Origin: a virus
Lineage: Duplodnaviria; Heunggongvirae; Uroviricota; Caudoviricetes
Length of the DNA: 34,304 nucleotides
IMG/VR virus record: IMGVR_UViG_2703718827_000010
Coordinates: 1 to 34,304 of that record
Direction: 5' to 3' (one strand)
The notes under the pieces are model-generated. The model was not told the origin of the DNA. It worked only from the letters and a program-made list of their open reading frames with translations, and did not search any database. Below, in pieces: positions 7,802 to 12,200 of this stretch. The translations under genes and the position numbers were made by a program. Within the stretch, counting starts at the first letter, position 1; each line of letters begins with the position of its first letter.

Positions 7802-8461
7802 TTAGATGTTCTGCGTTATCTGAACTACTTTGCCTACAATGCGGCAATTTCCATCAATTGGGATCGGCTTAAAGGCGGGATTAAGCGGCATTAAATATGA
7901 GTAAGGGCTATCCCAAACAAGTTTCTTCACAGTCGCTTCTGCTGAACCATCGAGTATTGCTACGACAATTTTCCCATACAGGTCATCAAGTTGTCCGTAG
8001 TGTGGTTCAACGATAACGATTGACCCCTCCGGAATTGATGGAAGTCCGTGTGGGTTAGTCATTGACTCACCACGAACTACCAAACCGAAAACTTCATCAG
8101 AAACGTTTGCTGTGGTTTGAGTCCATGAAATCACATCAGTAAGCCTTGAGCATGCATAGGTATCAGTCCATACCCCGGCCTGAACAGCAGAGATAATAGG
8201 AACGGCCGTAGGTGGCTTCAGGTATGGGATAACTTTGGTGTCATCTTGAGTCTCATCACCCTTGCCGTAAAGAATCCATTCAGGAGTAGTCTGTAAAGCC
8301 ATCGCTAGTTGGTGAAGGTTTTCTCCGTCAGGCTTAGTTGTACCGTTCTCCCATTTGGTAACGGACACTCTACTCACCCCAAGGCGTTTAGCCAGGGTCT
8401 GCTGAGTTATATCGAGCTGGACTCGCCGGGATCTTATTCGGTCTTTCATCTCTGTTTTCAT
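7802..8461 (-). CDS. cI: CI-like prophage repressor (HTH XRE domain plus S24 LexA-like autopeptidase domain)
   Basis: N-terminal HTH (QQTLAKRLGVSRVSVTKWENG); C-terminal S24 peptidase region (VVRGESM...KIVVAIL); divergent from cro. Confidence 0.85.
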   Translation of the reverse strand: MKTEMKDRIRSRRVQLDITQQTLAKRLGVSRVSVTKWENGTTKPDGENLHQLAMALQTTPEWILYGKGDETQDDTKVIPYLKPPTAVPIISAVQAGVWTDTYACSRLTDVISWTQTTANVSDEVFGLVVRGESMTNPHGLPSIPEGSIVIVEPHYGQLDDLYGKIVVAILDGSAEATVKKLVWDSPYSYLMPLNPAFKPIPIDGNCRIVGKVVQITQNI

Positions 8462-8524
8462 GTAACCAATGTTACATTGATTCCTTGTAACTGTTGTTTG
8501 CTATTTAATGTACCTTTTGTTACC
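8461..8524. promoter_or_regulatory. cI-cro intergenic operator/promoter region: palindrome TGTAACCAATGTTACA (8461-8476) plus 18-nt motif copy AATGTACCTTTTGTTACC (8507-8524)
   Basis: Palindrome abuts the cI start codon; motif shared with the two copies left of cI; half-site resembles TGTAAC/GTTACA. Confidence 0.45.
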
Positions 8525-8553
8525 TTTAAGGCGTGAGTTAACCAGGAGGAACC

Positions 8554-8751
8554 ATGCTTAAAACTGACGTCATAGAACACTTCGGAGGGGTATCAAAAAC
8601 CGCGAGTGTTTTGGGAATTTCTCATCCTGCAGTGTGCCGATGGGGTGATGTGATCCCTCAGAAGCAAGCTTTTGTTATCGAACGTATCACTAAAGGCAAG
8701 CTTAAATACGATGCCAGCCTTTACCAAAAGTCTACAGACACAGCAGCTTAA
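8554..8751 (+). CDS. cro: Cro-like small HTH regulator
   Basis: 65-aa protein divergent from cI, AGGAGG RBS, HTH segment GGVSKTASVLGISHPAVCRW. Confidence 0.7.
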   Translation: MLKTDVIEHFGGVSKTASVLGISHPAVCRWGDVIPQKQAFVIERITKGKLKYDASLYQKSTDTAA

Positions 8752-8776
8752 ACATAACTACCAAAGGAAAAACAAG

Positions 8777-9241
8777 ATGGTAGAGCAGACCCTGAAAGAA
8801 GTAGTGAAAGCGATGTGCAAGGCGTACCCCGGAGGCCGTCAGGCTATGGCTGGCGCGTTAGGCATGTCAGAAACCCAGTTCAACAACAACCTGTACGAGA
8901 AAAACGGATGCCGGTTCTTTGAAGTAACTGAGCTGGAAGCGATGGAAGACATTTCCAATACGTCATTTGTTGCTGACTACTTTGCTAAGCGTCGTGGCGC
9001 ACTGCTGGTGGACGTGCCAAGCCTGGAAGATCTGGACCGTGTTGACTTGTTCAGTCGTGCAATGCGTACAGCAGCTGCAAGGGGGCAGGTTGATCAGATT
9101 ATCCAGAAGGCGCTTGAGGATGGAGTGATTGAAAAGCATGAAGCTGAAGAGATTCAGGAACATCACCGCCGTCATCTGGCAGCGCGTGAAGAAGAAATCC
9201 GCGCGATTGTGGCCTTATTCAGCCGCCGTCAAAAGAAGTGA
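8777..9241 (+). CDS. CII-like early regulatory protein (start at internal ATG 8777)
   Basis: Position directly after cro; 154-aa protein MVEQTLKEVVKAMCKAYPGG...; assignment by position and general resemblance to phage CII/CP76-type regulators, not verified. Confidence 0.5.
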   Translation: MVEQTLKEVVKAMCKAYPGGRQAMAGALGMSETQFNNNLYEKNGCRFFEVTELEAMEDISNTSFVADYFAKRRGALLVDVPSLEDLDRVDLFSRAMRTAAARGQVDQIIQKALEDGVIEKHEAEEIQEHHRRHLAAREEEIRAIVALFSRRQKK

Positions 9242-9302
9242 CGCCAGCGAGTGTGCAGCTCCTGGCGTCGTGGCGTGTCGTATTCAGTGGAGAAACTAAC
9301 GC

Positions 9303-9641
9303 ATGAACAGTGTAACAACACAGTACCGCAGGTCGCAACTTATTGCTCGACCTATGCCGGGTGGAAAAGGTCCGGCGCAGTTCGTGTATGGGGTAATGGT
9401 ATCCGGATGCTTTGAGCCTGTCTGCTACCAGTTTGCCGATTGGGTTGTAGGTGATTTCAACGGCCAGGCGGAGAAGGTCGAATGCGAGCACTCAACAGAC
9501 GGTTTAAAGACAGCTACGGCGTCCCAGTCAGGGTTATCCGGTGGGAACCAGAAACTCAACGGGTTATATACCTGCGCGATGGATACGAGCATGAGTGCTT
9601 CAGTCCTCTCGAACAGTTTCAGCGTAAATTCAGGGAAATAG
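9303..9641 (+). CDS. Hypothetical protein; C-terminal half may be read-through in the wrong frame (see overlapping ORF 9482-9694)
   Basis: GGAGA RBS 9 nt before ATG; ends 10 nt before the O-like start; C-terminal half is low-complexity S/T/G-rich. Confidence 0.35.
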   Translation: MNSVTTQYRRSQLIARPMPGGKGPAQFVYGVMVSGCFEPVCYQFADWVVGDFNGQAEKVECEHSTDGLKTATASQSGLSGGNQKLNGLYTCAMDTSMSASVLSNSFSVNSGK

Positions 9642-9694
9642 AGGATCAGAATGAGCCTGTTAATGACATCACGGCCAATAGTGATAAATCCTGA
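9482..9694 (+). CDS. Hypothetical small protein overlapping both 9303-9641 and the O-like gene start
   Basis: 70-aa ORF with globular-looking composition (RVIRWEPETQRVIYLRDGYEHECFSPLEQF); AAGG RBS; frame closed upstream by TGA at 9452. Confidence 0.4.
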   Translation: MRALNRRFKDSYGVPVRVIRWEPETQRVIYLRDGYEHECFSPLEQFQRKFREIEDQNEPVNDITANSDKS

Positions 9695-10559
9695 CCTTGC
9701 ATACAGCATTGGCCTGAATGAGGCGATTGCATTGCAGCAGATTAATTACTGGCTGCAAGAAACTAAGTCAGGCATGGAGCGTGACGGTGTTCGCTGGATT
9801 TACAACACGACAGAACAGTGGCTGGAGCAGTTCCCGTTCTGGTCTGAGTCGACCCTGAAGCGTACCTTCACCCGCCTGAAGACACTCGGCGTGCTCAAAA
9901 TTGAGCAGTTGAACAAGTCTCAACGCGACATGACCAACTTCTACACGATCAACTATGAAAGCGAGCTTTTAGATGAAGTCAAAGTGACCGAATCGAAGAG
10001 GTCAAAATGCGCTGTTCCATCAGGTCAAAATGACACGATGGAAGAGGCCAAAGTGACACACTCCATCAGGTCAAAACGAACCGCTGTCATCAGGTCAAAA
10101 TGCACTGATGATCCTACAGAGAATACAACAGAGAGTACTACAGAGATTACAGGTAAAGACTCTTGTCCGGTTGCAGGGCAACCAGACCCTGAAGTTGTGA
10201 TTACTGATCAGGCGATTTTGGTGTTGTCCCATTTGAACCAAATCAGCGGATCCCGGTATCAGAAGTCAAAAACATCCCTGGAGAACATCCGTGCCCGACT
10301 GCGTGATGGTTACAGCGTTGCTGACCTGCAACTTGTTATCGACCTCAAACATGAGCATTGGCACGAGAACGACGAGCAGTACCAGTACATGCGACCTGAA
10401 ACGCTGTTCGGACCGAGGAAATTTGAGAGCTATCTGCAAAGCGCCACCCGCTGGAACCAGAAGGGACGACCCAAGCGTGCTGACTGGGGCGCTAAAAGGC
10501 GCGATGTGATGGATTTTGGTCCTGTTGATACAACGATTCCTGCGGGCTTCAGGGGGTAA
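9651..10559 (+). CDS. Replication initiation protein (lambda O-like replisome organiser) with in-gene origin iterons
   Basis: Position after cII; AGAGGA RBS; central repetitive RSK-rich linker encoded by direct DNA repeats; conserved-looking C-terminal domain. Confidence 0.65.
   Translation: MSLLMTSRPIVINPDLAYSIGLNEAIALQQINYWLQETKSGMERDGVRWIYNTTEQWLEQFPFWSESTLKRTFTRLKTLGVLKIEQLNKSQRDMTNFYTINYESELLDEVKVTESKRSKCAVPSGQNDTMEEAKVTHSIRSKRTAVIRSKCTDDPTENTTESTTEITGKDSCPVAGQPDPEVVITDQAILVLSHLNQISGSRYQKSKTSLENIRARLRDGYSVADLQLVIDLKHEHWHENDEQYQYMRPETLFGPRKFESYLQSATRWNQKGRPKRADWGAKRRDVMDFGPVDTTIPAGFRG
9975..10102. repeat. Iteron array (candidate ori) inside the O-like gene
   Basis: CATCAGGTCAAAA(T/C)G at 10018-10032, 10064-10078, 10088-10102; partial AGGTCAAAATG at 9999-10009; CAAAGTGAC variants nearby; A-rich stretch downstream. 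Confidence 0.6.
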
Positions 10560-10561
10560 CG

Positions 10562-11005
10562 ATGAGCTTACTGAAAACTATCCAGATGTTTGTAGCTCAG
10601 AACCCTGGGCTAACCAACAAGCAGATAGCTGCAGCACTGACAGAATACGATATTCAGTCGGTTCAGCGTGCCGTATGCCGACTAGTTGATACAAAGCGTG
10701 CAACACGTAAACACGCGGGAAAGTGTTATCGCTATTACGCAGAACCGCCAGCAGATTGCCACTTCGAGGTTTTTGAACCAACCCCTGAAGTCAGCGCACT
10801 GATGGAGACGGCGAAATGTCTGGAGTCGAAAGGCCTCTTTCACCGTGCCGCGACGATATACATGCAAGCGTTCAGCGTGTCAGCCATTGAATCAGAGCGA
10901 GCAGCAATTCTGGCAGAACGTCAGCGCTGTCTTGGCCTGGCTAAGCCAGCAGTTATTACCGAAGACGGATGCTATCTGTCTGGTCGATTTTCGGGAGGCC
11001 GTTAA
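10562..11005 (+). CDS. Hypothetical protein, possible winged-helix regulator (PerC-like assignment uncertain)
   Basis: 147-aa ORF immediately after O-like gene; N-terminal HTH-like segment LTNKQIAAALTEYDIQSVQRAVCRLV. Confidence 0.45.
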   Translation: MSLLKTIQMFVAQNPGLTNKQIAAALTEYDIQSVQRAVCRLVDTKRATRKHAGKCYRYYAEPPADCHFEVFEPTPEVSALMETAKCLESKGLFHRAATIYMQAFSVSAIESERAAILAERQRCLGLAKPAVITEDGCYLSGRFSGGR

Positions 11006-11879: not shown

Positions 11880-12200
11880 GTGAACAAACTTACCGTGAGA
11901 CAAAGTGAAGTACTTGGTTCGATCGTGAACTATCAGCGCCGGTTCGGATTCCCTCCAACGATATGTGAACTGGCTGGGCTGATTGGTTGCTCATCACCGA
12001 ACGCTGCAGCGGAGCATGTGAAGGCCATAGCGAAGAAGGGATATATCTCAGTTGCGCCTGGAGTTTCCAGAGGGATTACCGTTATTTCAGCAAACGATGA
12101 GGTAGACGCGATATCGATCATCAAGTCACTCATTAACGGTGATAGCGATTCAAGAGAACGCGCCTTGTCATGGCTGGAAGCGAGAGGTGTTCAGCAATGA
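11880..12200 (+). CDS. LexA N-terminal DNA-binding domain homologue lacking the S24 peptidase domain
   Basis: GTG start; residues about 5-70 align with the LexA wHTH domain (LTVRQSEVL...GFPPT..ELA...G..SPNAAAEHVKAIAKKGYI...GVSRGI); only 106 aa, no Ala-Gly cleavage/peptidase region. Confidence 0.65.
   Translation: MNKLTVRQSEVLGSIVNYQRRFGFPPTICELAGLIGCSSPNAAAEHVKAIAKKGYISVAPGVSRGITVISANDEVDAISIIKSLINGDSDSRERALSWLEARGVQQ

Follow-up and report, generated by a model that had tools for sequence, protein, structure and literature searches.

The window analysed here is a 34,304-nucleotide stretch of a Caudoviricetes genome (IMG/VR record IMGVR_UViG_2703718827_000010), and its coordinates are used throughout. 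Two overlapping open reading frames (ORFs) lie on its plus strand in a lambdoid immunity and replication region, with a YmfL/cII-like gene on their 5' side and an O-like replication gene on their 3' side: ORF1 (9303-9641, 112 amino acids) and ORF2 (9482-9694, 70 amino acids), which share 160 nucleotides, ORF2 being read in the -1 frame relative to ORF1. ORF1 is preceded by a Shine-Dalgarno motif, GGAG (9289-9292, +), 10 nucleotides 5' of its ATG, and ORF2 by GGAGAAGG (9470-9477, +), both read from the sequence. ORF2 overlaps by 44 nucleotides the O-like replication initiation gene (9651-10559, +, 302 amino acids; Pfam Phg_2220_C, expectation value (E) 2.4e-23; phrog_428, E 7.6e-72). The ORF1 TAG (9639-9641) is fused to the Shine-Dalgarno motif of the O-like gene, GAGG (9641-9644), within 9639-9645 (+), and 9 nucleotides separate this stop from the O-like ATG at 9651. 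The first-pass annotation of this DNA had placed both ORFs, their ribosome-binding sites and the 44-nucleotide overlap as we find them. Its close spacing between ORF1 and the O-like gene also stands, at 9 rather than 10 nucleotides, as does its description of the C-terminal half of ORF1 as low in complexity: serine, threonine, glycine, alanine and asparagine make up 30 of the 52 residues at positions 61-112 versus 18 of 60 in the first half. It left a choice between one spurious ORF, two genuinely overlapping genes and a frameshift joining the two, and the identity of the locus as ymfM/DUF4222 was not recognised.

The 70-residue product of ORF2, which includes the peptide sequence DGYEHECFSPLEQFQR, matches Pfam PF13973 (DUF4222) with an E of 4.3e-18 and a score of 65 bits (gathering threshold 27), its residues 4-53 (9491-9640) aligning to profile positions 5-52 of 53, and it also matches phrog_1343 (E 1.8e-32). 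Eight residues present in ORF2 (R6, D10, G13, V18, R32, Y35, C39 and F46, window numbering) are invariant in a 34-sequence alignment reaching down to 33% identity; in a second alignment of 22 sequences, G13, V16 and Y35 are invariant. An AlphaFold2 model of ORF2 forms a small beta-barrel, with a predicted local distance difference test score (pLDDT) of ~92 for residues 11-50, and residues beyond ~57 differ with the downstream gene. The Prokaryotic Genome Annotation Pipeline (PGAP) annotates DUF4222 in all relatives inspected. In every lineage a G-rich, Shine-Dalgarno-like motif lies 4-10 nucleotides 5' of the ORF2 start, despite differences in the overlapped ORF1 residues, and the start codon is ATG in lineages generally and TTG in the type found in the Escherichia coli K-12 cryptic prophage e14. 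By comparison with its relatives, ORF2 is predicted to be a DUF4222 gene of the RgdR family that is autonomous, having a Shine-Dalgarno motif and start codon of its own.

The DUF4222 family is small: 1.84 billion proteins contain 45 clusters of it at 50% identity. Across all DUF4222 loci examined, its genes almost always stand directly 5' of a replication gene (O-like, primase or helicase-loader-like), often through an ATGA junction; Cronobacter L336 is the exception, with no replication gene called 3' of DUF4222. This position suggests a link to expression of the replication module, a link not discussed for RgdR. Three relatives from IMG/VR are natural ORF2 knockouts: L088 has a nonsense codon at codon 2, L020 is truncated to 33 amino acids and L121 has a recombination breakpoint at codon 29.

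ORF1 matches phrog_1170 from end to end (E 4.5e-36, 1-112 of 112), and a match to phrog_20047 (63 amino acids) is confined to residues 1-62; no Pfam family was found for ORF1 or its N-terminal part in the profile search. The region is homologous to ymfL-ymfM-ymfN of e14, with ~74% DNA identity and shared gene order, and the N-terminal part of ORF1 is 59% identical to K-12 ymfM and the remainder 50% identical (tblastn). Like ORF1, e14 ymfM (b1148, sfiC) stands in the order ymfK/cI, ymfT/cro, ymfL, ymfM, replication gene, encodes 112 amino acids that start MNSLT, contains a nested DUF4222 ORF and stops 9 nucleotides before the next gene. In e14, ymfL overlaps ymfM by 4 nucleotides (ATGA), whereas in the window a 61-nucleotide gap (9242-9302) separates the YmfL-like stop from the ORF1 start, and the YmfL-like protein has 154 amino acids here (ATG at 8777) versus 185 in K-12. 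The DUF4222 gene begins with TTG and has 59 codons in e14, versus ATG and 70 codons here, a difference in length that arises because the replication genes differ. Full-length homology and the same position identify ORF1 as the homologue of e14 ymfM (sfiC).

The two annotations of the K-12 sequence disagree at this point. Curated MG1655 carries ymfM ('cell division inhibitor YmfM', 112 amino acids, 1203822-1204160) with nothing nested in it, and PGAP on the same sequence gives a 59-amino-acid DUF4222 gene (1204001-1204180) and no ymfM.

ORF1 divides into an N-terminal module (residues 1-60, 9303-9482, +), hereafter YmfM-N, and a tail (residues 61-112 and the TAG, 9483-9641, +; it includes the peptide sequence LNGLYTCAMDTSMSASVLSNSFSVNSGK) that is the DUF4222 gene read in its +1 frame. 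Residues M1, S3, Q12, R14, P17, G20, Y29 and V49 are kept in 19 lineages of the N-terminal part, down to 16% identity, and in distant phages YmfM-N is a standalone gene of 53-69 amino acids, where gene callers do call it. Conservation of this kind points to the first 60 amino acids of ORF1 as a real small-protein module of the YmfM family. Hundreds of fetched loci and about half of complete E. coli genomes carry YmfM-N; a database search with it returned only 5 matches in 5.8 billion proteins, some of them frame-switching chimeras. We attribute this near-absence from protein databases to gene callers, which avoid overlaps and drop YmfM-N for DUF4222. AlphaFold2 prediction of ORF1 as a single sequence was uninformative (pLDDT 44). 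A natural truncation of ORF1 to 63 amino acids occurs in locus L028, via a GTA-A codon pair.

To assess selection on each frame, we compared 124 related loci, taken from IMG/VR and from genomes of E. coli, and added the loci of distant DUF4222 members, for more than 300 related loci in all; ratios of nonsynonymous to synonymous substitution (dN/dS) are Nei-Gojobori estimates. Across the 124 loci, amino-acid identity was 75-83% for ORF2 and 40-58% for the ORF1 tail, and for the N-terminal part of ORF1 it ranged from 35 to 100%, or the part was swapped for other variants. Within the overlap, dN/dS was 0.04-0.14 in the ORF2 frame and 1.5-6.5 in the ORF1 frame, the latter indistinguishable from the untranslated third frame, and among alignable relatives the N-terminal part of ORF1 gave 0.14-0.49. 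A second subfamily, ~50% diverged, showed the same, with the ORF2 frame constrained and the +1 frame not. Synonymous sites of ORF2 are saturated in the overlap, where the proportion of synonymous differences (pS) is 0.66-0.89 among the more divergent pairs and does not fall below the values for ymfL or O, so that the reduced synonymous rate that would mark amino-acid constraint on both products was not seen there. Because the ratios in the ORF1 frame match those of the untranslated third frame, the tail is free of amino-acid selection.

The ORF1 frame is nevertheless kept open, and its ends are fixed. Of 104 distinct relatives, 102 have the ORF1-frame ATG at -167 to -179 and the ORF1-frame stop at +157, both counted from the ORF2 start, with the ATG of the next gene at +169. 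The stop at +157 is seen even where the N-terminal parts are barely alignable and the replication genes differ. The same succession of a stop (TAG or TAA), then a Shine-Dalgarno motif, and an ATG 9 nucleotides on marks every family-1 relative, even where the replication gene is a different one. The third frame contains stops from +5 onward. When ORF2 was synonymously recoded at random with the codon usage of the window, the ORF1 frame was stop-free over the 52 shared codons at a rate of 7% by exact calculation (~6% by simulation), and the third frame was open in <1% of recodings.

For a stop to arise in the ORF1 frame, an ORF2 codon must have T in the middle and take A or G as its synonymous ending, and this allowed avoidance to be followed codon by codon. 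Codons L/V4, V18, V28 and L43 of ORF2 end solely in C or T, and by parsimony these sites show 0-1 changes between purine and pyrimidine, compared with 2-8 at other four-fold sites, where all four bases are used. Avoidance depends on the following base: V16 is GTG or GTA in 8 of 36 sequences when the next codon begins with C and in 0 of 46 when it begins with A; I19 is ATA in 11 of 65 before C and in 0 of 17 otherwise; and the harmless L31 is CTG in 54 of 81 sequences. Taken together, stop-making endings occur 1 time in 366 in dangerous contexts, L028 being the sole exception, against 150 purine endings in 328 safe contexts (column-level Fisher test, p = 3e-4). The ~50%-diverged subfamily (L128-L147, L331) behaves alike, with 0 of 80 stop-making endings in dangerous contexts versus 60 of 118 purine endings in safe ones, and its Leu before Asn is only CTC or CTT, though these make up 18% of local Leu usage. 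The pattern indicates that the ORF1 tail is selected only for being stop-free.

Each frame of this same-strand overlap thus bears its own translation-dependent selection, on amino acids in ORF2 and on the avoidance of stops in the ORF1 tail. The first-pass annotation had proposed aligning relatives to see which frame is conserved, with a single frame under purifying selection to count against two genes. At the level of amino acids in the overlap, that is indeed the outcome, and the frame is that of ORF2; the ORF1 frame shows stop exclusion instead, ahead of which its N-terminal part is conserved. It is very probable that these are two real overlapping genes, the tail of the first being unconstrained in sequence yet kept open. 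Genuine overlap, one of the three options originally offered, is therefore supported with the qualification that the ORF1 tail is under stop exclusion rather than amino-acid constraint, and spuriousness is not supported for either ORF.

Deeper lineages provide controls. By exact calculation, synonymous recoding would leave the +1 frame free of stops with a probability of 0.036-0.165 per lineage. The +1 frame is open in eight of the nine deep lineages that have a YmfM-N-like gene upstream: the window/e14 family, L169, the P0133-like/Providencia group, Xenorhabdus L249, Sodalis L334, Cronobacter L336, Yersinia L337 and the E. coli ash-type L125. It is closed in all three lineages that lack such a gene, as RgdR and 48 distinct RgdR-like genes have 2-4 +1-frame stops inside the domain, and Pantoea L332/L333 and Brenneria L335 have 1-4 inside the gene. 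The association of an open frame with the presence of YmfM-N, counted by lineage, is significant (Fisher p = 0.018). From these controls and the Fisher tests, openness is therefore neither a coding property of DUF4222 nor chance.

The +1-frame stop falls from 9 nucleotides before to 10 nucleotides after the start of the next gene in the lineages examined. It lies 9 nucleotides before the replication ATG in family 1 and e14, 4-5 before it in L128 and L141, in an ATGA overlap with it in L169 and L249, and 8-10 nucleotides after it in L334. L169, Sodalis and Cronobacter resemble the window in having YmfM-N fused to the tail. The P0133-like, Providencia and Xenorhabdus loci have YmfM-N as a separate gene of 58-69 amino acids in another frame (longer where the ORF opens 5' of the conserved M-N/S-S start), and the TGA of this gene overlaps, as ATGA, an ATG made by DUF4222 codons 3-4 (AAT GAR). 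That ATG opens a +1 ORF of 55-62 amino acids across DUF4222, which ends 4-5 nucleotides before the replication ATG or as ATGA. These comparisons show the open +1 frame to be linked to the upstream YmfM-N gene, and its stop to be tied to the start of the replication gene.

Two further arrangements were seen. In the Yersinia loci L337/L338 (1343-1789), YmfM-N in the +1 frame ends in a TGA that overlaps the DUF4222 ATG (ATGA). In the E. coli prophages L125/L126 (1001-1837), the ORF1 frame has no stop, and a 279-amino-acid open frame runs through DUF4222 into an ash-family gene, whose PGAP start is an internal codon of that frame.

We propose, as the most economical reading, that the ORF1 tail serves as a translational bridge. 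Both ORF1 and ORF2 are presumably translated. Ribosomes starting at ORF1 would cross the DUF4222 gene and terminate on the Shine-Dalgarno motif of O, 9 nucleotides before its ATG, so that the tail would carry ribosomes from the ymfL-ymfM frames to the O start. This could allow coupling to O by termination and reinitiation, or, by maintaining translation over the stretch, it could prevent termination of transcription ahead of O. An upstream stop within a few nucleotides of the downstream start, as coupling would demand, is found and is conserved across lineages. The bridging mechanism on its own remains tentative, a little short of an even call; the whole explanation, with ORF1 and ORF2 as real genes and the ORF1 tail as a bridge to O, seems to us probable, though not strongly so.

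Several observations weigh against this proposal. e14 is normally repressed, and translation of ORF1 and ORF2 rests on sequence comparison. The O-like gene has a respectable Shine-Dalgarno motif of its own and no obvious need of coupling, and no conserved RNA structure hides that motif. The DUF4222 ORF also ends near the O start, as ATGA in some lineages, and could alone act as the coupler, making a second bridge redundant. The L148 group has a YmfM-N gene and a +1 ORF of just 33 codons, closed because Met-Ile in its DUF4222 forces a TGA, and the ORF1 of L028 is cut to 63 amino acids. Past its single stop, the Yersinia +1 frame continues open over 95 codons, the first ATG coming at 1631, a pattern that could reflect a recent stop, reinitiation or readthrough. 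The compared lineages also share descent, and their probabilities cannot strictly be multiplied.

The main rival to the bridge holds that the tail is a functional part of YmfM whose length is needed, for example a disordered, S/T-rich segment for division inhibition, stability or localisation. Cells filament on expression from pBAD24 of the ORF for e14 YmfM, which has the same architecture and 112 amino acids, fused forms of 108-138 amino acids recur in several lineages, and stop avoidance fits this idea equally well as it fits a bridge. Yet the ratio of nonsynonymous to synonymous differences (pN/pS) in the tail equals that of an untranslated frame while ORF2 synonymous sites are saturated, and the character of the encoded segment shifts from S/T-rich and hydrophilic here to a hydrophobic N terminus in the P0133-like +1 ORFs. 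That YmfM-N and the +1 ORF are separate polypeptides in several lineages also speaks against a functional tail, which would leave the end of the frame beside the replication gene start unexplained; we regard this reading as unlikely. Translation of the +1 frame might instead modulate initiation of DUF4222, or cover the RNA against Rho termination before the replication genes. Either role would produce the same stop avoidance without constraint on sequence, and with a weak TTG start for DUF4222, as in the e14 type, the stretch might otherwise be poorly translated. Modulation of initiation, however, would need translation across the DUF4222 start only, not to its end, and no rut-like or terminator-like feature was identified that would call for cover against Rho, which leaves these roles rather improbable.

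The remaining accounts deny that there are two independent, selected frames, and each fares poorly. It is very improbable that DUF4222 is the sole gene, ORF1 spurious and 9242-9481 non-coding, as the PGAP view has it: PGAP annotates only DUF4222 in all relatives inspected, and ORF1 has no Pfam family and few database matches, but against this the N-terminal part has the low dN/dS given above, its ATG and Shine-Dalgarno motif are conserved, its residues are conserved at 16-40% identity, it is called as a separate ORF in distant phages and the open +1 frame is tied to its presence. A frameshift joining the ORFs, whether an indel near 9450-9490 or a programmed -1 shift giving a YmfM-N-DUF4222 fusion, is more doubtful still. 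A heptamer of the X XXY YYZ type, U UUA AAG (9503-9509, +), does lie in the ORF1 frame, where it resembles a -1 slippery site into the ORF2 frame, and a few database chimeras join the N-terminal part to DUF4222 (P0064, P0065, P0085, P0160, P0189 and P0190). The chimeras, however, come mostly from raw-read (Logan) assemblies, switch at differing points and look like indel errors. The heptamer needs ORF2 codons F8 = TTT and K9 = AAA, and GTTTAAAG is found in 15 of 77 distinct relatives, the window's close ones, the remaining relatives having TTC AGA, TTC AAA and similar. The ORF2 frame has its own Shine-Dalgarno-like motif and start in all lineages and is closed by a stop 3-18 nucleotides 5' of its start in many relatives. 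We therefore rejected programmed -1 frameshifting, although U UUA AAG could allow some -1 slippage into ORF2 in the window, and the identical two-frame layout in more than 100 independent assemblies excludes a sequencing or assembly error. Least credible of all is that the ORF1 frame is open by chance or phylogenetic inertia. A 52-codon alternative frame would be open by chance in 4-17% of cases per lineage, and the relatives share ancestry; against this, avoidance follows the next base, dangerous sites are nearly unchanged, and the pattern recurs in subfamilies that have diverged by 40-60% but not in the three lineages lacking a YmfM-N gene.

Other features of the overlap region were considered and set aside. 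An antisense ORF of 94 amino acids (9425-9709, -) is codon-aligned with ORF2, and its frame is stopped only by the sense codons TTA, CTA and TCA; it has no family match, and in 28 of 82 relatives a TTA or CTA at ORF2 codon 53 interrupts it. It looks like a by-product of the rarity of these codons, and we judged it as such. In one genome inspected, PGAP calls a minus-strand hypothetical protein here (L002 1726-1893, -). A second antisense ORF, at 9219-9491, also has no family match and was rejected as a gene. A hairpin masking the O Shine-Dalgarno motif was rejected too: GUCCUCU (9604-9610) pairs with AGAGGAU in the minimum-free-energy fold, which is no better than that of shuffled sequences (z = +0.83). 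Across 25 lineages RNAalifold found no conserved pair; pairing of the candidate helix at the O Shine-Dalgarno motif holds in 68% of cells, less than in the shuffled controls, and covariation is not in excess. In a scan of 8500-10700 against Rfam, the only match was a chance one to a snoRNA (E 0.4), 8700-10000 contained neither promoter-like nor terminator-like sites and gave no sign of an oop-like antisense RNA, and the PADLOC defence-system models gave no match.

The arrangement bears on the function assigned to ymfM in K-12. ymfM was identified as sfiC, and its ORF expressed from pBAD24 causes filamentation and loss of the Z-ring; deletion of ymfM reduces SOS filamentation in a sulA background (bioRxiv 10.1101/2020.11.19.390815). 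Clones from earlier screens held ymfL', ymfM and ymfN' together (PMC3614548, PMC6206680). The cloned K-12 ymfM ORF includes 160 of the 180 nucleotides of the DUF4222 ORF, the nested ORF is unmentioned in these three reports, and our literature search found no paper on the ymfM/DUF4222 overlap. Because the constructs and deletions carry or remove both genes, the phenotype is ambiguous and is assignable to neither product alone, and division inhibition is shown for the K-12 clone only. Possibly, though with less assurance than we attach to the bridge, the second half of ymfM-type genes is a bridge and not a protein domain; if so, SfiC, the SOS-inducible division inhibitor of E. coli K-12 now assigned to the 112-amino-acid YmfM, may be the 60-amino-acid N-terminal module or the unannotated nested DUF4222 protein. 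Two point mutations would separate ymfM from DUF4222 in the filamentation phenotype.

The only characterised DUF4222 protein is RgdR (ECs1581) of enterohaemorrhagic E. coli (EHEC), encoded in the O157:H7 island OI-51/CP-933C. RgdR activates LEE1/ler of the LEE (locus of enterocyte effacement) and type III secretion; it is a repressor of motility, and its binding to DNA is weak and non-specific (PMC3378721, PMC10877973). ORF2 resembles it as a small basic PF13973 protein encoded directly 5' of a replication gene, and the RgdR gene (L250:3720-4019, E. coli O157 Sakai ECs_1581) has an ATGA overlap with the primase gene ECs_1582. Unlike ORF2, RgdR has 99 amino acids, with N- and C-terminal extensions (the C-terminal one basic) and an RGD motif at residues 20-22, and it is encoded in a phage-inducible chromosomal island rather than a lambdoid immunity region; it lacks an upstream YmfM-like gene, and its +1 frame is interrupted by stops. 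We rejected ORF2 as an orthologue of RgdR: ORF2 has 70 amino acids and no RGD, and only the core domain is common to the two, which places them in the same domain family.

Out-of-frame nested genes are familiar in phages, as with lambda Rz1 inside Rz and phiX174 E inside D. ORF2 and ORF1 are like these pairs in lying on the same strand, in different frames of a compact phage genome, and unlike them in that both product sequences matter in Rz1/Rz and E/D, whereas the ORF1 tail shows stop exclusion only. Translational coupling through close or overlapping stop and start codons, of the ATGA or termination-reinitiation type, is likewise known. The present loci share with it the ATGA junctions between the N-terminal part and the +1 ORF, between the +1 ORF and the replication gene, and between DUF4222 and the replication gene in several lineages; they differ in that the upstream frame, on which O translation may depend, crosses ~52 codons of another gene in an alternative frame. 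Annotations of each of the two gene families exist somewhere already, and neither overlapping genes nor translational coupling is new to phages. The locus adds an unusually clean natural case of an alternative frame selected only for its lack of stops, replicated across lineages and with internal negative controls, a pattern expected if translation itself, and not its product, is the function. The conflict in annotation is real and widespread, affecting thousands of enterobacterial genomes including the reference strain, and the comparative evidence argues that ymfM and DUF4222 should both be annotated.

The O-like gene is in the reading frame of ORF1, with only the TAG and three codons between them, and readthrough of this stop would yield a YmfM-O fusion; such a fusion was rejected as a general feature, as the shared frame does not hold in the P0133-like subfamily. 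Upstream of ORF1, the region comprises a LexA-like cI repressor gene (7802-8461, -), a cro-like gene (8554-8751) and the YmfL/cII-like regulator gene (8777-9241, +; NCBIfam NF041471 phage_reg_YmfL, E 3.8e-61; Pfam Phage_CP76, E 2.6e-14), whose product is called 'YmfL family' by PGAP in near-identical E. coli prophages. Downstream of the O-like gene follow a hypothetical gene, an MT-A70 methyltransferase gene, a short LexA-like gene and RusA. The short gene (11880-12200), between the methyltransferase gene and RusA, is the second of the LexA family in the region; it encodes 106 amino acids with the N-terminal domain only, and PGAP names its product 'LexA family protein' in near-identical prophages.

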